Shown piece after piece: positions 13,937 through 34,892 of a DNA stretch of 64,000 bases. Under the pieces are notes generated by a model, which saw nothing but the letters and a program-made list of their open reading frames with translations, was not told where the DNA came from and made no database searches. The stretch's first letter is position 1. Each line of letters opens with the position of its first letter. The position numbers and the translations under genes are program-made. The DNA comes from an uncultured cyanobacterium (GTDB taxonomy: Bacteria; Cyanobacteriota; Cyanobacteriia; CAKZMO01). The stretch is from positions 1 through 64,000 of the forward strand of contig CAVRCJ010000018.1 of assembly GCA_963719515.1 (NCBI GenBank), given 5' to 3'.

Positions 13937-16914
13937 CTGGCCACAATTGCACAACACAGGTCCTAGAGACCTGCGGCAAAAATATCTCGCAAGAGTTGAT
14001 TTCTAATCTCTTTTACCTGGTCTGGTCGAGTCTGTAGACTATCGAACCCATCTGATGGTACTGACAGGCGACGAATGGCATCTTTACAGTCTTGAAGATA
14101 CTCTTGCAGGTTACCGTTGTAGCGGATTTGCCCTCCGAGCAGGGCTTGACTAGACTGGCTTTTCCCCAATCGACACCTCTGCGCTGCATGAACGTCCTCT
14201 AGCAACGACTCTATCTCTTGCTGATACGATGCTCTTGCCTCTTTAGTCTGTAGCAGCAGCAGCAGCTTTAGAGATACTGCTGCAAAGATGCGGCCCAAAT
14301 CGGCGATTTCAGTGACGCGGTGAGGATAGAGCTCACGAACTGAAAAGACCTCTCCGCGCTCATCCCCTACGGGCTTAAAATTTCGGCTAACTCTGAATTT
14401 TGGTTCCGCTGAGTCTACTGTAGCGCCATCGTCGGGCGTAGACACTGTTTCCAGGTTACAGCCATCGTCGGCGATCGCCCAAGCGTAGTTAAACAAACGG
14501 TGAGCGCGGGTCAGCTTGTTGATCCAGTCCTCTAAGGTTTCCAGTTGAGTGTCCATATCGGTCTTGTCATCTTTGTTGAGGAATTCGTGTTTGTTATCAC
14601 TGCACAGATGAAAAAGCCCCCGGGCAAAGTACAGATAGCAGGCGTTGGGACCAAACAAGTAGATAGTCTCGTCTGGGTTGCCGGAAGATCCCTGTACATC
14701 CGCGCGCCGCACCGACTGCAGCAGCATATCTAAGTTGAGGACGTTAATTTCCTCTGTGGAAGCGCTTTGGGGTTGAAGAATGTTGAGTCCAGCATCCCCC
14801 TCATGAAACGACTCGCGCAGCACAGGAATATCTTCAATAGCGTAAGTTTCGTCGGTTTCCTGCGACGATTTTTTTAGGCCGCTTTTCTCCTTAATGCGAT
14901 AATAGCAGCGCCTGCCCGTCTCGGCATAAAACACGATAGCGTGGTCGCGGAGCTGCTTGGCGCGCTCTAAGCACTCGCCTTGGGTAAGGGTAAAGTCGAG
15001 ATCGTACTCGCTATGCTGGCAACGAACTACCGGCGTCTCTAGGCTACTAAACGCCGCCATTATATAGGCCCAGCACTGATAGCTCGTGTAGTAAGCGTAC
15101 AGGGCGCTGTTGCCATCGCTACCCGCATAGACTCGCGCCTTTTCGAGCAGGTAAATTTGCCCGGCGCGAATGACGTCTACCCGCTTGCGCGTCATACCGC
15201 TGTCTGCTGCATCACAGATATCGAGCGGAATGCGAAGCTGGGCAGGCTGCTGGTCTTTGGGTACCTTTCTAGGGAAAAAAATCAGCAGTTTGGCCCTTAG
15301 AAAGTAAATCTGGGCTAAGAGTTGATGGTGAGGTGTAAAGCGGGCCTGGGAGTACTCGTTGATAATGGTGTACTTAGCTAGCCGCACTTGGACATGGTCC
15401 TCGGCGCTGTTCAATGCATCCCAGGCGTATTCGGCGATCAGCCTAGTTTGGCTCAGGTCTTGCCCTTGGGAGGCCAGTTCCCACAGGTATTCAGAACGCT
15501 CTTGGGTTTCGAAGTCTAAGTCAAGCTGGTAATAATAGGCTGCTCGGCAGAGCTCGTAGCGAATTAGGCGAGCCCCCGAAAATAGCTCAAACTCATCTTC
15601 GCCATCGCCCTGGCCACGCTCAAAGCGGTTGAGCCATTTCCTACCCTGGGAAGAGTAGGCCGCAAACTCAAATGTTGTGGCCAACTGGTGTAGGTAGGGG
15701 TAGGCCTGGCGGTATCCCCCTTCCACTAAAAACGTTTCCGCCATTGTCAAGTAGGCATCGTAAATAATTTCAACCGCTTCACCAGTTTGGCCGTCGTGCT
15801 TAAGCAAGTTGGCTGTTTGAAGCTGCGCCTGCTGCGCTAGGGTGGAAAATGGGTAGGAAGTGACCCGCGATCGCGCTTGATGGAGCAGGTCTTGCTGCAC
15901 GACCCGACGACAGAGCTGACGAATGTATGTTTCAGGGTCAATGCCTGTAGCTTTAATTGCCTGCAGCCGCGACTGCAATACCGCCCGAGTGCTGCTAAGC
16001 AACAAGTCAAACTCGCAGTAGTCGCCGCGACCCACCACATCAGCGTAGGCAAACTGTCCATAGGGGCGGATGGTCCTAGCCCGAGCGCTCTCATTCATCG
16101 CTTGGCACAAGAAGTTGCGATCGCACAGAAGGGCCAAGCTATGGGACCAAGTGGGCGACGAGACGTTGTTGCCCTCAAACACCTGGTTAATCATCACGTC
16201 GTGTGCGATGGGGAAATAGTCTCGTAAGCATGTGATATCGCCAATCAACGCCTTGTTGAGAATCTTGATCACCTGGGAGAGCGTCCCTCCAATGCCGGAG
16301 CTGCTAACGGCAAAGTTAAAGTGGACTCGGTCCTCTACCACCTCGATCATGCGCTGAAACGCTTCTTGACCGTAAAGCTCAGGGCAATCGCGAAGCTCGT
16401 CTTGGGTAAACCGCACCTGAAACTGCACCGTGACGCGGTAAGAATGGCGCTTGGCTAGAGTAGAAATATCGCGATCGCGCCAGTCTGTGAGTTTATGTGG
16501 GTTGTCGCTATTCCGCTCAGCGCCGTTTGCTACATCAAGCGACAGCAGGCCAAAGTCGAGCAGGGTGTCTTTCTCTCGCAGCGGAAATGGGCCTACGCTT
16601 TCAACAGAGACGGCGCTCACCACGATGGGGAAGCTTTCCCGAATGGTACGGTTTGCTTTGACAGACTGTGCTAGCCGAAACAAAAACGACCGACTCAAGT
16701 AGCGCAGGATGTAACTTTCGTCGGCGATTTCACCCCGGAAATAGAGAGGGCGGATTCCGCCCTTGACTAGGATGCTGCGTACGGCACCGATTACGGAGGG
16801 GTAATGCTTGCTGTCGTTACCGGTGAGTAGGCCGCGAAGAAAGGCCTCAATTTCTTGGCGATTGGCGAAGCCCTCGCGAGGCGAAGGACTGTCGCCCATG
16901 CCTATAGAGGTTTT

Positions 16915-17760
16915 GGTAGTGCATTAGTGTAAAGGATAGAGGATAGTAAGCTATATCTGTGTATTCGGCGAAAGCATGATGCCAATAAAGCCAGAAATGA
17001 CCTGCCCCACTTGTGGCTCTCACGACATCTCGAAGAACGGCATGACGCGCCGTGGCAAGCAGAACTACAAGTGCCGAGACTGCAACCGTCAGTTCGTCGA
17101 AGACCCTCAGTGGAAGCCAAAAGACAAACATGACCTGAGCTTAGTCAATTTACTGCTGCTAGAAAGACTCGCATTGGCAGGCATCGCTAGAGTGGCAGGC
17201 GTGTCAGAGAGTTGGCTTCAAAGCTATGTCAATGACACCTATGCGGCGGTCTCGAAGATAGCGGTGGTGACACCTAAAGCCAAGGGTAAGCTTCGTGTGC
17301 AAATGGATGAGCTGTGGTCATTTGTCGATAACAAAGGGAACAAGCAGTGGGTCTGGCTAGCGATGGATGTTCAAACGCGAGAAATCATCGGGTGCTACAT
17401 CGGCGATCGCTCGCGGAAGTCAGCTAGGCGACTATGGCAGTCACTACCGGGTGTGTACAGACAGTGTGCGAAGGTTTACACAGACTATTGGGAAGCCTAC
17501 GAGACGGTTATTCCTAGCAAGCGGCATTGTGCTGTAGGTAAAGACAGTGGATTGACTAGCTACATAGAACGGTTCAACAACACATTGAGACAGCGCGTGT
17601 CGCGGCTAGTGAGAAGGGCATTATCCTTCTCTAAGAAGATAGAGAATCACGTAGGTGCGATTTGGACTTTCATTCATGAGTACAATCGTTTGGTCCAGGC
17701 AAGGAGAGTTAACTGTCTTGACCCTGATGTTTTCTCTATCCTTTACTAAAATGCACTACC
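16915..17760 (+). mobile_element. IS1-family insertion sequence
   Basis: Terminal inverted repeats GGTAGTGCATT..GTAAAGGATAG; 8-bp TSD GAGGTTTT at 16907-16914 and 17761-17768. Confidence 0.95.
16976..17749 (+). CDS. IS1 transposase, InsA and InsB fused in one frame
   Basis: CPTC/CRDC Zn ribbon, MDELWSFV, YTDYW, IERFNNTLRQR motifs. Confidence 0.92.
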   Translation: MMPIKPEMTCPTCGSHDISKNGMTRRGKQNYKCRDCNRQFVEDPQWKPKDKHDLSLVNLLLLERLALAGIARVAGVSESWLQSYVNDTYAAVSKIAVVTPKAKGKLRVQMDELWSFVDNKGNKQWVWLAMDVQTREIIGCYIGDRSRKSARRLWQSLPGVYRQCAKVYTDYWEAYETVIPSKRHCAVGKDSGLTSYIERFNNTLRQRVSRLVRRALSFSKKIENHVGAIWTFIHEYNRLVQARRVNCLDPDVFSILY

Positions 17761-18863
17761 GAGGTTTTGTAGAGCTGCAAGATGGCGTCGTTTAGCTCAG
17801 CATCAGTATGGTATAGCCGGGTGTTGAGCAGCATCTGCTGAAGCAACACCTCCTGGTCATTGTTCAGCGACTGAGAGACGGCTCCCTCCGGAAAGATGCT
17901 GCGCTTTTCGTCTGGGCCAAGCTGAATTAGCCGCTGGAAAGCGGCTAGAATTTCCTCCTCGGTTAGGGACTGCCAAAAACCATGGTCCTGCTCTTTGAGG
18001 CGACTGAAGTATCGTACCAAGTCTTCGGGAGAGATCAGGCTTGTCCCATCCCGCAGCTGACTGTAGAGATTCTTCCCCGTCGTCTCGCTGACATTAGGGT
18101 AGAAAAACTTGCTTAGGGTATTCTCGCTGTCGGGCTTGGCTCGGCTACCGTCGGGCGGTCGCCAGCCCTGCCGCGCTAGGTCCGAGCGGTATTGGCGAAA
18201 GCGCTGCAGAATGGCTCGAAACGCCTGCTTTGCTCGTCGTGTCGCTGAGGCACCCCCCGGCTCTGTCTTTCGCGCCCTTTCTTGAGAACCTTGATCTGGA
18301 GGTGACTGCATTTTACAAACATTGTTTAATTCCTTCCGGACGCCCCTTTCAATCTGATGGTCATGATAACGCTTGCTCGAAGAAAAAGCTAAGTGGATGA
18401 AATAAAAACTACTTTCAAGTTCAACGTAGTTACCGATAGAGCTAGATAATGTCGTGCTAGCGGGGAGAGATTGCTGAATGCTGTAGCCAATTACCGCATT
18501 AGCCCTGAGAAAAACGCTACATATAGCGTGAAAGTCAGTAAAGGCCACTTCATGATCTAGTCAGGGAGCAACTAGCCTGTTTTTATTTGAACTAGAAGGG
18601 TTAGCTCGGGGTAAATTTATTAAACCCTTTACTTGCGGCTAAAGACCTTTACTGACAAGGGTTTCAGCCGTATAATCAATTCATATCGATGTGAAGTTGA
18701 TATAAAGCAACCGTGCTAAAGCTTGCCTGAGGCGGCTGTTAATCTAACCAGTTTTGTTCGCAGCCACAAAACGATTTTGGAAAGCTTATGGCCTTTCCTA
18801 GATCTGCTGTACTCTCGACAGGCTTTGATAGCAACTTCTTTACCCCTTACTTGGTATAAGATT

Positions 18864-20759: not shown

Positions 20760-20886
20760 GTCGGTCTACGTCAGCTCGCACTTGAGCGGCGGGCCTCGTA
20801 GCGCACCGTGAGGAGTAGCCGCGATCGCCGCGTAGAGGCTAGATGGCGCTTTAAGGGCGATCGCCATAGCGGGTGGGGAAGCCCGA

Positions 20887-21261
20887 CTACCGAATGGGCC
20901 GCTGCTGGATGAGGTAGCTGAGCACCTGGCCATGGGTGGGGGTGATGTGGACGCCACGATCGCCAATGGCAATTAGCGGGGTCCACAGCCGCCATTCCAC
21001 GTACTGCAGCACGTGCAGCCGGTTAATGGCTTGGCGCACGCCTTCGGGGGAGCCGATGATGATGTGCCGCAGATGTGAGTCTTCGACTGGTCCTGAAGGG
21101 CCAACGCAACCTGGCGCTGGCGAGGGCTCAATCAGCGTGGGGATAGCCGGGTCCGCTTCTAGAGGGGAGTCTAGCCGCAGCGCAGCGGGTTCCGCAGCGG
21201 GGTTTTGGGGCGCTGCAAACTGTGCCGCCCCTTGGGGCAGCGATGGGTATTGAGTTGTCAT
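20887..21261 (-). CDS. Small cyanobacterial hypothetical protein, module copy 1
   Basis: LRHIIIGSPEGVRQAINRLHVLQYVEWRLWTP conserved across three copies with synonymous changes; GGAG RBS. Confidence 0.8.
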   Translation of the reverse strand: MTTQYPSLPQGAAQFAAPQNPAAEPAALRLDSPLEADPAIPTLIEPSPAPGCVGPSGPVEDSHLRHIIIGSPEGVRQAINRLHVLQYVEWRLWTPLIAIGDRGVHITPTHGQVLSYLIQQRPIR

Positions 21262-21485
21262 GAGGGACTCCATTTTTTGAGTTGAGTTGGAGTCCCCCGC
21301 CGACCGATCATCCTCGACGTTTTTTGGGGGTGGGATGACCAGGTACCATGTACTCCAGGCGTCCCGACAGCCACGTTCTGTCGCGGGGGCTTAGGGGCTG
21401 CATGTTGCGACATCAACATGCGGCTCCGCCCAAGACCGAATCTTTGGGAGACTAGAACCATGGGGACCACGGCTCATAGCTCCCG
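21262..21485 (-). ncRNA. Putative structured leader RNA, module copy 1
   Basis: Conserved stems GCATGTTG/CAACATGC, CGACAG/CTGTCG, GGGACTCC/GGAGTCCC; TTGCCA-17-TATTCT promoter upstream. Confidence 0.6.
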
Positions 21486-21584
21486 AGAATAGATCATTTG
21501 TGGGCGGGTGGCAAGAGGGTAGCGTGATTTTCTGAGATGTGGCGTTGGGCGATCGCTTTGGGGGATTGGCGATCGCGGTTCGGG

Positions 21585-21785
21585 AGAACTGTTGACCTGC
21601 TTAGCAGTTCTAAATTGTTGCTTTGGAGTTCTGTTGAGCTGCTAATGAGTTGAGCAGTGCTACTCTCTAGTTCTGCTGAGCTGCTCAGGAGTTCTAAAAT
21701 GCTGCTCGGGAGTTCTGTTGAGCTGCTTGGGAGTTCTGTAGACCGACTCACCAGTTCTGCTGGCTTGCTTGGGAGTGCTGCTGTG
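21585..21785. repeat. Degenerate 21-nt tandem repeats
   Basis: Recurring AGTTCTG(T/C)TGAGCTGCT unit; minus-strand frame gives ELxSxST heptads; second copy at 28655-28835. Confidence 0.75.
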
Positions 21786-22367
21786 GGGCGATCGCTGCAT
21801 AGAATGGAGCAAGCTCCCGTATATTGAGAGGAAGCAATCTTCAGCCAGGGCAATGATTCTTGCCATAAACCAGGAGAAACTCACTAGCGTAATAAATGTA
21901 GGATTTTCCAGCTCTGAGGCCGTAGCGCCTTACACAAAACGCCTATTTTACTCAATTCAGGAGTTGATAATACTGCAATTTTAGAATGGATAATTGCGAT
22001 ACAATGCCACTACATAGGCACTCTCTGAGAAAGCGATGAATAACGCTCTAGAGTCCATATTTATATGAATAATGTAGAGGCGATAAGAAGATACACAATA
22101 GCTCCGAATTTTTAAAGATAGACACTAAATGTGGTGAATAGTCATGAGAAGAAGGGCATTATCTGTTAGACGTGCTTCGGAAGGCGAGGCATTATTTGGG
22201 AGAATCTAATGTTGAGTGCATAGTTGGCTTGTCGATTTGAAGGATCTTGGAAATGGACAAGCCAGTAGCATTTTTTCGATTCGCTCCGCGACTTGCTCAA
22301 TGTGCTATAAGCAGCTTAGTTGATCCAGTCTAAAATTGAATCCATTTTCAGCTTATAAAAAATTCCT

Positions 22368-23063
22368 ATGGTATATTCACATTCAGCTCTGAGGTTAAAG
22401 CAATTGGAAGACAATATCAGCCATGTCTTACAACTATTGAATGAGTATGAAAAAGAATTACTTGACGAAGACGATCCTAGCAGGATAAGTAGGTATCGTC
22501 GCCGCGTCGAAACGCTGAGGCAGCAAAAGAAAAAATACGAAGAAGAGTTTTTAGATCTACAAGACAAACTGAAAAGCAAATACCCAAATCGAATTCAATC
22601 TCTTTCTAGTCAAATTCAGAATATTGATAACAAGATTGACTCATTTCTAGAAGGTCAAGTAGGACTTTCTCAAGAATTAATGTTACATTTTAGCTCTGAA
22701 GTTCAATGCCTCATTCTACCTCTTGCGCAAAAGCTAAATCAGTCTGAGATTGTAAAATCAAAGAAGCTTTTAGAATCCATAGATAAAAATCTCGTTCCAG
22801 AAGAAAGCATGCGCTTAATATTGTCAGAGATCAGTCAAGCAATAAAAATATCGCAAGACGAAAAACTACATCTTCCGGAAGAAAGCGAGATTGTTGCTGA
22901 AATAATCAATTCGCCAGAAATTGATGCAAAGCACGCGTTAAAGGTCTCAATTCCTATTATTCCTTTCGTTCTCGCATATGAAGGAGAATTAGGATTGGGG
23001 ACTGGAATCAATCTTAAAGAGTTTTGGACAAATTTGAGATCGAAGTTTATCAAGGATAGTTGA
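22368..23063 (+). CDS. Hypothetical protein with N-terminal coiled-coil effector-associated-like domain; first gene of the Lamassu-like operon
   Basis: Low GC; stop overlaps next start; LLDEDDP helical hairpin; C-terminal KVSIPIIPFVLAYEGEL. Confidence 0.75.
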   Translation: MVYSHSALRLKQLEDNISHVLQLLNEYEKELLDEDDPSRISRYRRRVETLRQQKKKYEEEFLDLQDKLKSKYPNRIQSLSSQIQNIDNKIDSFLEGQVGLSQELMLHFSSEVQCLILPLAQKLNQSEIVKSKKLLESIDKNLVPEESMRLILSEISQAIKISQDEKLHLPEESEIVAEIINSPEIDAKHALKVSIPIIPFVLAYEGELGLGTGINLKEFWTNLRSKFIKDS

Positions 23064-23713
23064 GCTTTATGAATTGGCGAGAGGAAAGAAAGCTTGGCCT
23101 TGACAAAAATATGCTTAAAATTGTAAAGCTTCTTGGCACATGCGAACAAAGTTTGATTGATGAGAGCGATCCTCAAGCTAGAAATAAGCTAGAAGCTCAA
23201 ATTTCTAAACTTAGGGAAGACATGAGTAACTGCCAATCAGATTTGGAGAGACATGAGTCAGTATCTTATACTCCATCGGGTTCTGCCTTAGCAATGGCCA
23301 GTATCGCTTATGATGACATTACATTTGTGATTACAGCCCTTTTGAATCAGAGAGCAAATTTTTCAGATGGACAGAGCATTTTTCAACCCACTAACCCCGA
23401 AGAAAAAATGTCTAAGAATTATTTGACACACGAAATTAAATTTGCCCTGGGCATGGGTTTAGCTAAAGCAGGCGAAGTGCGCCATTTTATCGAGCAAAAT
23501 GCAAAGATCTACTTCCCTGATGTTCCAGAAAGACTCAAGGCAGCTTTAAATATCGAATATAAGAGGCTGCTTAGTCAGGGTATCCGAGGAGACGAGCTAT
23601 TCAATCAGCTTTATAGATTTTCGCACCAAAATAGTTCAAATACCTCGCGCCAGCTGGCAGGTTTAGCAGTTTTATGTTACTTCTTTGAAACTTGCGATAT
23701 TTTTGAGCCGTGA
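23060..23713 (+). CDS. Lamassu LmuA-like protein (ABC-three-component C-terminal domain)
   Basis: C-terminal LAVLCYFFETCDIFE motif typical of ABC-3C CTD; no catalytic N-terminal domain recognised. Confidence 0.8.
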   Translation: MSFMNWREERKLGLDKNMLKIVKLLGTCEQSLIDESDPQARNKLEAQISKLREDMSNCQSDLERHESVSYTPSGSALAMASIAYDDITFVITALLNQRANFSDGQSIFQPTNPEEKMSKNYLTHEIKFALGMGLAKAGEVRHFIEQNAKIYFPDVPERLKAALNIEYKRLLSQGIRGDELFNQLYRFSHQNSSNTSRQLAGLAVLCYFFETCDIFEP

Positions 23714-23937
23714 TATTACCTGATAAGTATATTTCAGTAGATAACTCATTACTAGGAGTTGGTGCTATTATCATAAAATATTTGAATCAGCCTCGAACAG
23801 TGACTTCCCTTTGGAGCGATTTATCTAAGATTTCAGAAGTTTCTACCTTTGAGCGATTTGTTCTAGGACTTAATTTGCTTTATATGATTGGGGCTATTGA
23901 ACTAAAGGAAGGCTTACTCCAAAAGCGTCGCCAATGA
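23710..23937 (+). CDS. Lamassu LmuC-like protein (ABC-3C middle component)
   Basis: MILPDKYISVDNSLLGVGA...LNLLYMIGAI; 75 aa; lies between CTD gene and ATPase gene. Confidence 0.85.
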   Translation: MILPDKYISVDNSLLGVGAIIIKYLNQPRTVTSLWSDLSKISEVSTFERFVLGLNLLYMIGAIELKEGLLQKRRQ

Positions 23938-25679
23938 TAAACTCTATATTTGCAAATAAAGACTCCTTTAAGCCAGTTGAATTCGCGCATGGATTCAATG
24001 TAATATTAGCCGATCGCACAGATTATTCTAGTTCTAGAGACTCGCGCAACGGTTTAGGAAAGTCAAGCCTTATTGAAATTATTCATTTTTGCTTGGGCTC
24101 GAGTCCGCGTAAAGGTACAGGACTAAGAGTATCAAGTTTGAGAGGGTGGTCTTTTGGCCTAAATTTGACTCTAGCAGAGCGCGAAATCATTGCTACGAGA
24201 AGTGTTGATGAACCTACGAAAATTTATTTGCAGGGCAATACTACTGATTGGATAATTCAGCCAAGATCGGAAGAAAATCAGAAATTTTATAAGATAGAAG
24301 AATGGAAAAAGCTGCTTGGATACCTAACTTTCGAATTGGCGATTAATGAGGAACGGCAGTTTGCTCCCAATTTTCGCGGTCTAATTTCCTACTTTATTCG
24401 GCCAGGAAAAGACGCATTTTCTACGCCTTTCGAATACTTTAGGAAGCAACCAGGGTGGCAAAAGCAAGTTCTTAATACTTTTTTGCTAGGGCTTGCCTGG
24501 GAAGATGCCAGCGATTTTCAGAAGATAAAAGAAGAAGGAAATCTGTTAGACAGTCTCAAGAAGCTAAAGACCTCTAATCAAGGTATTATCTCGACAAGAA
24601 TCTTAGGGTCACTTGGAGAGTTGGAAGCTGCTCGAGTCAGAATTGAACAGCAACTGCAAAGGCGGCAAGAGGACTTGAGCAATTTTCGCGTACATCCTCA
24701 GTACAAAGAGCTTCAAAGAGAAGCTAATCTCCTTACTTCTGAAATACATGAAATTACAAATGAGAATATATTTAATCGTCAGCTTTTAAGCTTTTATCAG
24801 TCTAGTGTTGAGCAAGAAAGCGAACCAAACAAAAATGATCTGCTTAGACTATATGAAAGCGCCGGCGTTGAGCTTCCAGGTTTAGTTATTCGCCGTCTGG
24901 AAGAAGTAGAGGCTTTTCACCATAGAATCATCGAGAATAGGCGGGGTTTTCTGCTAACGGAAGTTCAGCGTCTAAGGCGAACTATTGCTGATCTAGAGCA
25001 GTTAATTCAAAGAAAAATTGAACAGCGAGCTGAGAGGCTTGAAATTCTACAGACTCACGGTGCTTTAGAAGAATATACTAGGCTCCAAGAATTGTACTTG
25101 GAGACGCGCTCCGACCTCAATGATATTAATAAGCGTATCGATGAGCTGAGAAAAGTAGAAGAGGGAAAAAGTGCTCTTCGGATAGAAAAAGAGCTTTTAC
25201 AGCAAAGAGCACGCCGAGATTATGAAGAGCGCTATGCTCAGGCTGAGCGGGCGATTACACTATTCAATTCAAATTCGCAAGCCCTCTATGATGCTCCAGG
25301 AACGCTTGCGATAAATGTAGGCTCAGGCGGATTTCAATTTAATGTTGAAATTGAAAGAGATCGCAGTGAAGGAATTGGCAAAATGAAGATTTTTTGCTAT
25401 GATCTAATGCTTGCCCAACTATGGGCACAACGGGAAACATCCCCTGGCATTCTTATTCACGATAGTACTATTTTTGATGGCGTCGATGAACGTCAGGTTG
25501 GTCTAGCACTTGAATTGGCAGCTAGAGAATCAGAACGACTTGGCTTCAAATATGCCTGCGCTCTCAACTCAGATATGGTCCCGTTAACAGAATTTTCACC
25601 TGAATTTGATTTCGATTCTTTTATAAGGCTTAGGTTGACTGACGATGAGGGCGGAAACCTTTTTGGCATCGAATTTTGA
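23934..25679 (+). CDS. Lamassu LmuB SMC-like ABC ATPase (DUF2326-type)
   Basis: Walker A SRNGLGKSS, long coiled coil, LIHDSTIFDGVDERQ Walker B/D-loop region. Confidence 0.9.
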   Translation: MINSIFANKDSFKPVEFAHGFNVILADRTDYSSSRDSRNGLGKSSLIEIIHFCLGSSPRKGTGLRVSSLRGWSFGLNLTLAEREIIATRSVDEPTKIYLQGNTTDWIIQPRSEENQKFYKIEEWKKLLGYLTFELAINEERQFAPNFRGLISYFIRPGKDAFSTPFEYFRKQPGWQKQVLNTFLLGLAWEDASDFQKIKEEGNLLDSLKKLKTSNQGIISTRILGSLGELEAARVRIEQQLQRRQEDLSNFRVHPQYKELQREANLLTSEIHEITNENIFNRQLLSFYQSSVEQESEPNKNDLLRLYESAGVELPGLVIRRLEEVEAFHHRIIENRRGFLLTEVQRLRRTIADLEQLIQRKIEQRAERLEILQTHGALEEYTRLQELYLETRSDLNDINKRIDELRKVEEGKSALRIEKELLQQRARRDYEERYAQAERAITLFNSNSQALYDAPGTLAINVGSGGFQFNVEIERDRSEGIGKMKIFCYDLMLAQLWAQRETSPGILIHDSTIFDGVDERQVGLALELAARESERLGFKYACALNSDMVPLTEFSPEFDFDSFIRLRLTDDEGGNLFGIEF

Positions 25680-27724: not shown

Positions 27725-27963
27725 GCGCCGCTGCTGTCCCTGGCGGAATTTGGATTTCTAGCTCATAAAACCAATCACAAAGCAGCTAGCGCTTGCTTTC
27801 CCTTGACGATCTGTCTCTCGTCTTAAAAGCAGGGGCCAACTCGTTCAGCGGACTAAGCAGAGCGCACCATGAAACGTCGACAGGCTTTAGGCAAAATGGC
27901 GATCGCCGCGTAGAGGCTAGATGTTGCCTTAAGGGCGATCGCCATAGCGGGTGGGGAGCCCGA

Positions 27964-28338
27964 CTACCGCATGGGCCGCTGCTGGATGAGGTAGCTGAGC
28001 ACCTGGCCATGGGTGGGGGTGATGTGGACGCCTTTTTCACCGATGGCAATCAGCGGGGTCCACAGCCGCCACTCGACGTACTGCAGCACGTGCAGCCGGT
28101 TGATGGCCTGGCGAACGCCTTCGGGGGAGCCAATGATGATGTGCCTCAGGTGTGAGTCTTCGACTGGCCCTGAAGGGCCAACACACCCCGGTGCGGGGGA
28201 GGGCTCAATCAGCGTGGGGATAGCGGGCTCGGCTTCCATGGGGGAATCTAGCCGCAGCGCAGCGGGTTCCGCAGCGGGGTTTTGGGGCGCTGCGAACTGT
28301 GCCGCCTCTTGGGGCAGCGAATGATATTGAGTTGTCAT
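27964..28338 (-). CDS. Small hypothetical protein, module copy 2
   Basis: Paralog of 20887-21261. Confidence 0.8.
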   Translation of the reverse strand: MTTQYHSLPQEAAQFAAPQNPAAEPAALRLDSPMEAEPAIPTLIEPSPAPGCVGPSGPVEDSHLRHIIIGSPEGVRQAINRLHVLQYVEWRLWTPLIAIGEKGVHITPTHGQVLSYLIQQRPMR

Positions 28339-28560
28339 GAGGGACTCCGTTTTTGAGTTAATTGGAGTCCCCCGCCGACCGGACATCCGCGACGTTTTTG
28401 GTTTTGGGATGGCCGGGTAATATCATTACTCCAGGCCGTTCCCGACAGCCACTGTCTGTCGTGGGGGCTTAGGGGCCGCATGTTGGCATCAACAGCATGC
28501 GGCTCCGCCCAGACCGAATCTTTGGGAGACTAGAACCATGGATAACGGCTCATAGCTCCA
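28339..28560 (-). ncRNA. Putative structured leader RNA, module copy 2
   Basis: Same stems as copy 1 with different loops; TTGCCA-18-TACCTT promoter upstream. Confidence 0.6.
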
Positions 28561-28928
28561 TAAGGTAGGACATTTGTGCGCGGGTTGGCAAGAGGGTGGC
28601 GCGGTTTTCTGTTGAGGGTGGCGATCGCTTTGGGGGATTGGCGATCGCGGCTTGAGAGATCTGTTGACCTGCTCAGCAGTTCTAAATTGTTGCTTTGGAG
28701 TTCTGTTGAGCTGCTAACGAGTTGAGCGGGGCTGCTCGCTAGTTCTGCTGACCTGCTCAGGAGTTCTAAAATGCTGCTTAGGAGTTCTGTAGACCGACTC
28801 ACCAGCTCTGCTGGCTTGCTCTGGAGTTCTGCTGTGGGGCGATCGCTGCACGTAATGAAGCAACCTCGCGCAGATGAATAGGAATTGGCCTTTGGTTAGC
28901 AATTACGAAGACTCAAGCCCTTGAGAAT

Positions 28929-29622: not shown

Positions 29623-30618
29623 ATGAAAAAAAGAGCACCTAGAAACCGCACGTTGACCTTGGAAGACGATGAAAAAGACACGCTTCTTAGGGAAACTATC
29701 ACACTTCAATCTGCTTGTGAGGCAGAGCAAATAGAAGGAAAAGTTATAAATCAGGATATTTTTTCTTGTATTGAATACTTGCCAGGCAATTTTATTGATC
29801 TTCTTGTAATTGATCCACCATACAATCTCAATAAAAAATTTGGTGAAAGCAAATTCTCTAAGAAATCAGAAGATTCTTATCAGGAATGGCTTGAATCATG
29901 GATACCAAATCTCAAGAGATGTCTGAAGAAAGACGCCTCTTTATATGTATGTTGTGATTGGCAATCTTCAAAGCCAGTTCAAGCCGTGCTTGAACGATAT
30001 TTTACAATCCGCAATCGCATCACATGGGAAAGAGAAAAAGGAAGGGGCGCAAAAACAAATTGGAAGAATTGTTCAGAAGACATTTGGTTTTGTACTATGT
30101 CAAATGATTACTATTTTGACGTCGAGGCGGTAAAACTTAAGAGGAAAGTAATTGCGCCTTATCGACATTCGTCAGGAAAACCGAAGGATTGGGAGGAAAC
30201 ACCTAAAGGAAATTACCGTCTAACACACCCCTCGAATTTATGGACGGATATATCTATTCCATTCTGGTCAATGCCGGAAAACACAGATCATCCTACTCAA
30301 AAGCCAGAAAAATTAATCGCAAAGTTAATTCTTGCAAGCTCTAGGGAGGGTGATTTTGTCTTTGACCCGTTTCTCGGTTCTGGCACGACATGCGTAGTTT
30401 CAAAAAAATTAGGTAGGCGATTCTCTGGCATAGAGATTGAATCTGAATATTGCGCTATGACAGTAAAACGACTTGCTCGCGCCGACTCTGACAACATCAT
30501 TCAAGGCTACCATGATGGTTATTTTTGGGAACGCAACAGCCTTGCCAAGCAAAAACAGAGCAAGAAAAAAAATAGTCAAGGTCAGGATGTTGTGATGGGA
30601 CTGTTTGATGAGCAATAA
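29623..30618 (+). CDS. N4-C/N6-A DNA methyltransferase (beta class)
   Basis: DPPY precedes HPTQKP and DPFLGSGTT. Confidence 0.92.
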   Translation: MKKRAPRNRTLTLEDDEKDTLLRETITLQSACEAEQIEGKVINQDIFSCIEYLPGNFIDLLVIDPPYNLNKKFGESKFSKKSEDSYQEWLESWIPNLKRCLKKDASLYVCCDWQSSKPVQAVLERYFTIRNRITWEREKGRGAKTNWKNCSEDIWFCTMSNDYYFDVEAVKLKRKVIAPYRHSSGKPKDWEETPKGNYRLTHPSNLWTDISIPFWSMPENTDHPTQKPEKLIAKLILASSREGDFVFDPFLGSGTTCVVSKKLGRRFSGIEIESEYCAMTVKRLARADSDNIIQGYHDGYFWERNSLAKQKQSKKKNSQGQDVVMGLFDEQ

Positions 30619-31765
30619 AATAAATGAGCTATTAGCGTTTATCGAAGAGCATAATGGTATTAACGATAAATCGAAATTATGTAAGCTTGTGGCGGATAAA
30701 TTTTCATTAACGAAAGACCGCTCTGTTTTTTATTGCAAAGAGTTTGCCATACGTTATAGCTCATCAAACAGCCAGAGCTTTTCAAATACAGTGCTTTCCT
30801 TATCCAAACTACAAAAGGTCGATGATCGCCCGTTTTTAGTTTGCCTAGTTGCCCCTAGTAGAAATCATATCCTTTTATCAAACACTACGTTCTTGAAAAA
30901 GATAAGCCACAGCTCTCAAGAGCTTCGTGAGAACAATATTCGTGGCAGCTTCAACGGCTCCGACATTATGCGAGAATTTGAAGGTATCGAGAACAAGCCA
31001 GAAAATATTGAACGGTTATTTAATATACACGCAGAAATCGGTTTTGAAGGCAACTTGGTACGCTTGGTTGAGGCAACGAACAATATTAGTCCTTCTGGAA
31101 CGAAATTTGCGCCAACTAATACGCAAATAGCCACTATATTAGATGCTCCACGCAGGGCCGTTGGTTTTGTTGGTAGTGATGATTTGCGGACGCTCAAGGA
31201 TGAATTGGATGTAAAGGTTGATCAATATAAGAACGAAATCTTGCTGGCTGGGCTGATAGAGAATGTGAATGTACGTGGGAGGATAATAGAATATCTGATT
31301 GCTGGTGAAGATGAGAGACTAAGGCAAGAAATTATAGATGCACTTTTGCAGAAATCTAACGGAATACCACAGTTTAAAACAGAAAATACTCTTGGCGATT
31401 ATTCGAGGGAGTTTGAAGAATATTTTACTGAGACAGATGTAAAGACAAAAATCATGGTTCTTAATTCAAACCCGAAAGCGTACAACCTTGATAAGGTTCT
31501 TGAGTTTTTGGCGACGAAAAAATCGGTGTTTATGTTTTATTTTGTAGGGATTGCACCAACAAAGATTGTTAACACAGTTCTAGTATCAATGTTTCAAGAA
31601 GACCTATTGAATTCAACTCTACTGCTAAAACACTGGTCAGGAAGAAATTCTAGGGGTGTTAGTCAGTTTGAGGGAAAAACAATTGGTAGGTTGATACTTT
31701 CACCGAAAAGTCACATCGACAATGAGAAAGCAACTAGCTTCCTTCGTAGGTTATTAGAGTTGTGA
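30605..31765 (+). CDS. Putative type II restriction endonuclease
   Basis: Overlaps the MTase gene; GD...TDVK PD-(D/E)xK-like motif; low GC. Confidence 0.65.
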   Translation: MMSNKINELLAFIEEHNGINDKSKLCKLVADKFSLTKDRSVFYCKEFAIRYSSSNSQSFSNTVLSLSKLQKVDDRPFLVCLVAPSRNHILLSNTTFLKKISHSSQELRENNIRGSFNGSDIMREFEGIENKPENIERLFNIHAEIGFEGNLVRLVEATNNISPSGTKFAPTNTQIATILDAPRRAVGFVGSDDLRTLKDELDVKVDQYKNEILLAGLIENVNVRGRIIEYLIAGEDERLRQEIIDALLQKSNGIPQFKTENTLGDYSREFEEYFTETDVKTKIMVLNSNPKAYNLDKVLEFLATKKSVFMFYFVGIAPTKIVNTVLVSMFQEDLLNSTLLLKHWSGRNSRGVSQFEGKTIGRLILSPKSHIDNEKATSFLRRLLEL

Positions 31766-33902: not shown

Positions 33903-33967
33903 GCGATCGCCGTGTAGAGGCTAGATGTCGCTCTAAGGGCGATCGCCATAGCGGGTGGGTCGTCCGA

Positions 33968-34315
33968 CTACCGAATGGGCCGCTGCTGGATGAGGTAGCT
34001 GAGCACCTGACCTTGGGCGGGGGTGATGTGGACGCCGCGATCGCCGATGGCAATCAGCGGGGTCCACAGCCGCCACTCGACGTACTGCAGCACGTGCAGC
34101 CGGTTGATGGCTTGGCGAACGCCTTCGGGGGAGCCGATGATGATGTGCCTCAAGTGCTCGCAGCCGGGGGCTGGGGAGGGCTCAAGCAGCGTGGGGATAG
34201 CGGGTTCGGCTTCCATGGGGGAATCTAGCCGCAGCGCAGCGGGTTCCGCAGCGGGGTTTTGGGGCGCTGCGAACTGTGCCGCCTCTTGGGGCAGCGAATG
34301 ATATTGAGTTGTCAT
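33968..34315 (-). CDS. Small hypothetical protein, module copy 3
   Basis: Paralog with an in-frame 27-nt deletion in the Pro-rich linker. Confidence 0.8.
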   Translation of the reverse strand: MTTQYHSLPQEAAQFAAPQNPAAEPAALRLDSPMEAEPAIPTLLEPSPAPGCEHLRHIIIGSPEGVRQAINRLHVLQYVEWRLWTPLIAIGDRGVHITPAQGQVLSYLIQQRPIR

Positions 34316-34540
34316 GAGGGACTCCGTTTTTGAGTTAATTGGAGTCCCCCGCCGACCGGACATCCGCGACGTTTTTGGTTTTGGGATGGCCGGGTAATAT
34401 CATTACTCCAGGCCGTTCCCGACAGCCACTATCTGTCGTGGGGGCTTAGGGGCTGCATGTTGTCATCAGCAACATGCGGCTCCGCCCAGACCGAATCTTT
34501 GGGAGACTAGAACCATGGGGACCACGGCTCATAGCTCCAT
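34316..34540 (-). ncRNA. Putative structured leader RNA, module copy 3
   Basis: Same stems as copies 1 and 2. Confidence 0.6.
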
Positions 34541-34892
34541 AAGGTAGGACATTTGTGCGTGGGTTGGCAAGAGGGCAGCGCGGTTTTCTGTTGAGGGTGG
34601 CGATCGCTTTGGGGAGGGTGGCGATCGCAGCTTGGGAGAGCTATTGGCCAGCTTAGCAGTTCTGAGATCTTGCTTTTTTCAAGCGCTCATCGACTGATCA
34701 CTGAAGAAATTTATTCGCCAAACCGGGGTGAATGCCTAGAGTTTGGGCTGAATATGCAATGAGAGTGATGGTGCAATCGCTTATCGAAATGCGCACTACA
34801 AGATCCTCGATTGCACTTATTTTATGAGTCAGGGCATACTTATAAGGCCCCTACTGTAGTCTAGCGACTCAGCCAACTTAGAATCTGTCAAC

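Follow-up and report, generated by a model that had tools for sequence, protein, structure and literature searches.

How can a Lamassu defence system act when its LmuA protein carries no effector domain? The question is raised by a four-gene locus at positions 22368-25679 of a 64,000-nucleotide (nt) stretch of contig CAVRCJ010000018.1 (GenBank assembly GCA_963719515.1, an uncultured cyanobacterium); this whole stretch is called the window here. Passages of PMC12663957 and 10.1101/2025.06.23.660979 describe the published Lamassu effectors as domains fused to LmuA. The present locus suggests how a LmuA without an effector of its own could have an output, by means of an adaptor and a separate gene. 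Its LmuA begins with a small helical hairpin, and the gene directly upstream (gene 1) encodes a homologous hairpin followed by an unnamed domain, called X in the following. Our main reading is a relay in which LmuA hairpins would cluster the gene-1 protein, X would damage the membrane and the infected cell would be killed; its probability is put at roughly 0.5.

All four open reading frames (ORFs) are present in the ORF calls and in the window translations, and all features of the locus lie on the plus strand. Gene 1 (22368..23063, 231 amino acids (aa)) has no family over the cut-off in Pfam or NCBIfam, and its PADLOC matches are weak only. The second gene encodes the LmuA-type protein (23069..23713), in which CTD10, a C-terminal domain (CTD), covers residues 83-213 (23315..23707; Pfam, 35 bits, cut-off 28.1); PADLOC PDC-M68A matches the C-terminal half only (E 1.7e-34). 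It is followed by an LmuC-type middle component of 75 aa (23710..23937; MC6, PF20293, 58.6 bits, cut-off 27.2, E 6e-16) and by a short LmuB-type ABC/SMC-like ATPase of 581 aa without a CxxC hook (23934..25679; DUF2326, E 2e-36; PADLOC PDC-M68B, E 9e-193, and a weaker match to an LmuB model, E 5e-10). The Walker A region of this ATPase reads GLGKS at residues 40-44, with Ser and not Gly at the first position of Gx4GK[S/T], and its Walker B, ILIHDS at residue 506, agrees with the definition hhhhD[Q/S/T/E] given in a passage of PMC12663957, with His at the fourth position. A PDB sequence search with LmuB gave no match at E<=0.1. An earlier annotation made from the letters alone (the sequence-only reading) had described four translationally coupled genes, and this is correct for the overlapping pairs 2/3 (GTGA) and 3/4 (ATGA). 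It gave LmuA 217 aa; the frame ends at 23713, but most homologues begin at a later ATG, so that the start is most likely at 23069, the protein has 214 aa, and genes 1 and 2 are separated by 5 nt without overlap. The block has a GC content of 0.37-0.41 against 0.57 genome-wide, and a scan for promoters and terminators stayed at chance level (10 found, 8.4 expected). By these domain matches the core is a short type II Lamassu/ABC-3C system of the PADLOC PDC-M68 lineage (CTD10 LmuA, MC6 LmuC, DUF2326 LmuB). As the sequence-only reading had also noted, LmuA has its CTD, and its N-terminus holds a 62-aa hairpin and no fused catalytic effector, for which reason the locus is classed as a Lamassu core variant and not as a named effector subtype. 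The nearest known system is the HNH-CTD10 short Lamassu (PADLOC PDC-M68), which has the same CTD10, MC6, 581-aa DUF2326 ATPase and gene order, and among whose HNH-LmuA CTDs the hairpin-LmuA CTDs group. It differs in that here a non-catalytic hairpin stands for HNH and a fourth, hairpin-bearing gene is always upstream.

The gene-1 hairpin, the proposed homotypic adaptor, covers residues ~5-68 (22380..22571), with helices at 5-31 and 37-68 in the AF2 model and the loop ELLDEDDP; the LmuA hairpin covers residues ~1-62 (23069..23254). Both had been quoted as similar in the sequence-only reading and both are found in the translations. Pairwise BLAST aligns them with 30% identity over 40 aa (E 2e-4), and HHalign of the two family profiles gives a probability of 98.1 and a score of 66 over 55 columns; the reversed profile scores 14, and all 30 heptad-preserving shuffles score 7-19 with a probability of at most 12. 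Judged by these alignments, the two N-terminal hairpins are homologous. Hairpins resemble each other slightly more within a locus than across loci (BLOSUM 1.61 against 1.45, identity 35% against 33%; in a permutation test p is 1e-4 with 31 pairs and 0.013 with 11 clusters, kin not being independent), loci without either hairpin being excluded from this test. The LmuA hairpins of this clade are also nearer to their own gene-1 hairpins (BLOSUM 1.61) than to those of the other clade's LmuA proteins (1.20), a comparison in which one window duplicate, 1 of 29 rows, is counted in the other clade.

These properties recall the effector-associated domains (EADs). In passages of Kaur et al. (2020, PMC7159879; 2021, PMC8195603), a core component and the gene beside it each carry a small helical domain, cognate copies being the more similar ones, and homotypic coupling through such domains is put forward as a prediction. 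The hairpins here are likewise small, helical and non-enzymatic, they occur on the core component and on the neighbouring gene, and adjacent copies are more alike than copies from elsewhere, if only by a small effect. The N-termini had been suspected to be EAD9-like. In profile comparison (HHalign against a profile of 16 EAD9 matches) the LmuA hairpins reach 92-93% and the gene-1 hairpin 26%, and the EAD9 (PF19962) score of the LmuA hairpin, 16.4 bits, is under the Pfam cut-off of 25. Matches to EAD9 at E<=0.05 occur in 13 of 38 LmuA homologues (best 3.2e-5) and in at most one of 65 gene-1 proteins. The hairpins are EAD9-like but do not reach the cut-off of EAD9. Among 30 EAD9 loci that were fetched, no X lies within 1.5 kb; the term 'ABC' does not occur in the main texts of the two papers by Kaur et al., and EAD9 is not mentioned in the searched supplement text of the 2020 paper. 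The locus offers a compact, clonable four-gene test of EAD homotypic coupling.

The linkage of gene 1 with hairpin-bearing LmuA is strict. A metagenome scan with the LmuA alignment gave 34 loci (the sets hold near-duplicates). Domain X lies directly upstream in 10 of 10 loci with hairpin LmuA and in 0 of the remaining 24, 16 of which have at least 390 nt upstream; the N-termini of these 24 are HNH-like in 18 (printed motifs, read by eye), otherwise nuclease-like in two, absent in one and cut in three. Among 401 genomes of the phylum, PDC-M68A matched 26. All seven CTD-only matches (frames of ~210 aa, the own genome included) adjoin X, and the five full-length matches that were scanned are HNH plus CTD10 or CTD11. 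Seen from gene 1, a hairpin gene follows directly in 21 of 23 genome loci, 13 times LmuA and eight times another gene (NACHT, NACHT-FGE, TIR, a probable membrane protein, unknown or short ORFs); the remaining two loci are L004, which has a deletion, and L021, in which AAA_35, EAD7 and X are fused. At L004:3429-4366 the deletion has joined a gene-1 homologue, broken off within its motif, to the last part of LmuB, which leaves a decayed copy of the four-gene unit. At the sensitivity of the profiles used, the own genome, which is 100% complete, has one X and two hairpins, so that gene 1 and LmuA form a closed hairpin pair. The gene-1 family counts 66 proteins including itself (37-68% identity), the ~214-aa LmuA architecture is kept across 38 homologues (45-77% identity), and the four-gene order is intact across several cyanobacterial families; the named relatives are mostly cyanobacteria. 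The LmuA hairpin occupies the position held by HNH in relatives, and the simplest reading is that the hairpin replaced HNH. A careful CTD tree places the hairpin LmuAs among HNH LmuAs, with two changes needed, although a single origin of the hairpin form would also be compatible with it; in a quick tree, calculated without L107 and cut rows, the 24 hairpin rows fall together on the same side (support 89). The adaptor-type Lamassu with a separate partner proposed by the sequence-only reading is therefore supported by homologous hairpins, strict co-occurrence and an LmuA that is no stump of a known type.

The partner itself is used more widely than in Lamassu systems. Domain X (residues 73-231, 22584..23060) consists, by profile and AF2, of a coiled-coil helix, a helical core and a conserved C-terminal motif, and a search with its profile yields 718 clusters at E<=1e-3, of which 142 remain at 1e-30. 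The best 150 X proteins divide into 50 with hairpin and X alone, 50 with hairpin and X in a longer protein, and 50 without the hairpin, 12 of the last being shorter than 215 aa; in 141 of all these proteins X lies at the C-terminal end. In the 82 longer ones the N-terminal partners found with Pfam include EAD1, EAD7, EAD11, TIR, DUF4062, SIR2 and SLOG, as well as Cap17-like nucleosidase, CHAT (4 of the 82), receiver and STAND domains. X also stands alone behind EAD7 (P0120), EAD1 (P0246) and EAD11 (P0182), and an EAD7-X protein of 249 aa is present as well. X genes precede hairpin-bearing NACHT, FGE, TIR and SNase genes; FGE and SNase partners, and further unknown ones, were contributed by the search of the phylum. 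Gene 1, although strictly linked to its LmuA, is by this distribution not Lamassu-specific, and X is a module common to many sensor types. Since X sits behind the hairpin and behind EAD1, EAD7 or EAD11 alike, the hairpin takes the adaptor slot and X the recruited slot. An unannotated domain of 718 clusters, common to many immune sensors, is brought to light in this way.

Some relatives deserve mention in their own right. A shorter family of ~165 aa (L038-L046) has the C-terminal part of X (HHalign 97.8%); several of its members precede NB-ARC, AAA_35 or nSTAND-like genes, and it is also found fused to TIR, COR, FGE and TPR proteins. P0132, P0180, P0188 and P0255 continue after X with a hydrophobic stretch, probably a transmembrane one, and a further domain, which would place X beside a membrane in these proteins. 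Gly/Asn-rich linkers precede X in P0174, P0191, P0210, P0225 and P0246 (CHAT-X and EAD1-X fusions), and these may resemble amyloid signalling motifs. In L035-L037, hairpin-X genes precede hairpin-FGE genes, and in two of these three the X gene has an internal stop.

What X might do is suggested by its most conserved part, residues 183-220. Across 203 non-redundant rows, hydrophobic and charged residues alternate at 185-195 and 202-216 around a PIIPF turn, and the 180-degree moment, which does not exceed 1.6 before residue 183, climbs to 2.2-2.6 in this motif. In gap-free rows the alternation is significant (p<0.05, within-segment shuffles) for strand 1 in 160 of 191, for strand 2 in 184 of 191, and for at least one strand in 189 of 191, and the polar faces of the two strands have median net charges of +2 and -2. 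Residues 185-216 (22920..23015) are predicted from this alternation to form an amphipathic beta-hairpin of a basic strand, the turn and an acidic strand; we infer that in an antiparallel register K192 and E205 would be partners and the hydrophobic residues would lie on one face. An amphipathic helix follows at residues 216-227 (23013..23048, AF2), with basic residues and the conserved Trp220 (W in 91% of rows). The sequence-only reading had pointed to the hydrophobic segment KVSIPIIPFVLAYEGEL of gene 1 and to a possible action on membranes. The segment is present in the translation, but a transmembrane helix in gene 1 is ruled out by a maximum KD19 of 1.28, and its pattern fits an amphipathic beta-hairpin better. 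An enzymatic X was also considered and is thought unlikely, as the conserved His189 is missing from the related ~165-aa family.

Structure comparison names no relative of X. AF2 gives an all-helical gene 1 (pLDDT 81, pTM 0.56) and an all-helical X alone (pLDDT 87.9, pTM 0.77). Foldseek against the PDB found no match at E<=0.001 for either, and PDB sequence searches gave coiled-coil noise or no match. VIA-align of gene-1 residues 1-100 gave generic three-helix bundles (best spectrin, Z 12.0, root-mean-square deviation (rmsd) 1.6, 89 aligned), and its best match for X alone (Z 5.3, rmsd 2.1, 62 aligned) decides for neither a new nor a known fold. The ESM Atlas had no named cluster that could be used; the three clusters that it gave at 0.90-0.91 are unnamed and mostly cyanobacterial.

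From these parts a mechanism can be proposed. In published Lamassus, according to passages of PMC12663957 and 10.1101/2025.06.23.660979, LmuA is kept monomeric, DNA ends are sensed, LmuA is released and its CTD forms a tetramer. By analogy, LmuB2C would hold the LmuA monomer here, sense phage DNA ends and free LmuA, whose CTD would tetramerise. The LmuA oligomer would then display its hairpins, which may bind the homologous gene-1 hairpin or displace its third helix. X, once clustered, would act as the terminal effector, and its residues 185-216 could assemble into a beta-barrel with a hydrophobic outside, a charged lumen and the Trp/basic helix as an anchor. That LmuA recruits the gene-1 protein is likely because its hairpin stands in the place of HNH and the gene upstream has a matching hairpin; the hairpin coupling of the two is, on this sequence evidence, the most secure part of the proposal and quite probable. 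A role of X as terminal effector appears reasonably likely. For a beta pore, as suggested by the motif, the chances are put somewhat under even. In short, the coupling is well supported and the pore is what we infer from it. If X does form pores, it would represent a new class of bacterial cell-death executioner.

Complex prediction lends the coupling weak support. Modelled together, gene 1 and LmuA residues 1-68 reach a score of 0.59, the best control being 0.02, and the runs share at least 84% of contacts with a partner pLDDT of at least 83. In the calibration, 116 of 157 solved pairs came up to the mark, as did 2 of 215 mismatched ones, yet scores up to 0.60 include only 18 of the solved pairs and both mismatched ones. 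The prediction raises the odds of binding slightly, and the genomic evidence carries the coupling claim. Several points weigh against this relay. The complex score falls in a range more often wrong than right unless the pairing is likely beforehand. The cognate-pair effect between hairpins is small (two percentage points of identity). For the beta-hairpin, covariation gives the register little backing: mean z is 1.4-1.5 where i+j equals 397 or 399 and 1.3 where it equals 403, with one register pair (187-212) in the top 40 covariation pairs. AF2 models residues 187-208 as a helix with a pLDDT of 94-97, so that a beta state requires refolding; helix-to-beta refolding is known for pore-forming proteins. 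The alternation would fit a soluble beta-polymer equally well. In 9 of the 150 best proteins the chain extends more than 25 residues beyond X, and several of these extensions start with a hydrophobic stretch which a barrel would have to accommodate. Finally, no protease gene is among the four, unlike in the pore systems Pepco and EACC1 as described in passages of PMC12642450.

An alternative that we consider unlikely is that gene 1 is indeed recruited by the hairpin, and X is a polymerising scaffold or second adaptor that signals to a non-homologous host protein or enzyme. That X follows oligomer-dependent enzymes (TIR, SIR2, CHAT), together with DUF4062 and PNPase-like domains, would fit such a scaffold and also counts against the relay, and several weak CARD-family rows of the X model over residues ~52-159 (Z 4.1-4.7, rmsd 3.4-4.1, 79-87 aligned) lie below threshold and are a lead only. 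Yet one third of the top X proteins are a hairpin and X alone, and a homotypic downstream partner is missing, because the own genome has no second X and 21 of the 22 X-bearing genomes (of 401) have a single match. It is rather improbable that X acts on the membrane by alpha-helical or re-entrant insertion in place of a beta-barrel: the confident AF2 helix and the 12-residue hydrophobic core with the amphipathic C-terminal helix would suit surface insertion, but P196 (99%) and P199 (100%) are near-invariant in the segment, the flanks alternate with a period of 2 and not 3.6, and the maximum KD19 is only 1.1-1.3. We give slightly less credence again to a toxin-antitoxin pair, in which the oligomerised LmuA hairpin would be toxic and gene 1 would neutralise it as a decoy. 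Gene 1 is always upstream, as such a pair might have it, and among the 38 LmuA homologues a single one matches MLKL_N, if faintly (E 0.008); the hairpin, however, is charged and variable, the most conserved motif lies in X, and behind EAD1, EAD7 and EAD11 there are X domains with no hairpin. A decayed HNH Lamassu beside an unrelated passenger gene, which the broken relatives L004, L012, L014 and L027 (Lamassu loci) and L036 and L037 (FGE loci) might suggest, is largely refuted by the linkage (10 of 10 against 0 of 24), the intact gene order in several cyanobacterial families and the shared hairpin.

How does the locus compare with what has been described? Haudiquet et al. (2025, PMC12663957) report a clade O whose LmuA lacks an effector, which is still counted as Lamassu and, in the passages concerned, left unexplained. 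The text on clade O in that paper names no adaptor or partner gene, and 'cyanobacteria' is missing from its main text. Both clade O and the present locus have an LmuA without a catalytic domain, and the two may be one lineage. At L086:441-848 the LmuA, of ~135 aa, appears to be CTD-only; LmuC and LmuB accompany it, and X is missing upstream. This locus may belong to the published effector-less clade, or be a frameshift. Evans et al. (2025, PMC12642450) describe Pepco (Trypco1/2) and EACC1, small beta-strand pore effectors coupled to diverse sensors. X resembles these as a small non-enzymatic constant component with diverse sensors (FGE, STAND) and in its predicted amphipathic strands, charged lumen and amphipathic helix. 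Those effectors need protease cleavage, whereas activation here would come from adaptor clustering, and no Pfam model of Pepco or EACC1 matches gene 1 or is among the 25 families listed for 65 homologues. In the Bab/Agp amyloid-coupled defence, as described in parts of 10.1101/2024.11.07.622273, adjacent sensor and death-effector genes share an activation-transmitting motif. Sensor and effector are neighbours with a shared motif in both cases, but there the motif is an amyloid one and the effector is similar to pore-forming domains of fungi, animals and plants, while here the motif is a helical hairpin and X is without an identified relative. The locus is a member of neither group. EADs are not mentioned in the part consulted of a modularity screen (10.1101/2025.09.30.679545), and our literature search found no description of the gene 1/LmuA pair or of X; the ABC-3C classification (Krishnan et al. 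2020) or the supplementary information of Haudiquet et al. may show the architecture. We conclude that the locus is a conserved new variant of Lamassu and that the shared effector family X is possibly new. In its widest form, which we offer tentatively and hold to be somewhat doubtful, X would be a family of beta-pore death effectors activated without proteolysis by adaptor clustering, with the hairpin linking it to Lamassu SMC, NACHT, FGE, TIR and SNase proteins and EAD1, EAD7 and EAD11 to others. In the present locus an SMC-type DNA sensor would then act on a pore by way of a death-domain-like adaptor, and multicellular cyanobacteria would have a relay in the style of an inflammasome.

The surroundings of the locus also contain features of interest. 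On the minus strand at 13963-18548 lie ORFs of 978 aa and 270 aa without a family over the cut-off, with a 257-aa ORF between them that is presumably an IS1-type transposase; the region is possibly another uncharacterised system. An element of ~1.1 kb is found at 20771-21900 and 27899-28884 (84-86% identity), and also at 33903-34676. It has an ORF of 128-140 aa without a Pfam match, and there are 20 matches of at least 250 nt in the genome. Defence cargo of low GC content (0.38 and 0.41, against 0.57) comes after each of the first two copies: the Lamassu locus, and a type II restriction-modification pair at 29623-31765, which consists of an N6/N4 methylase and a REase_II (E 2e-158).

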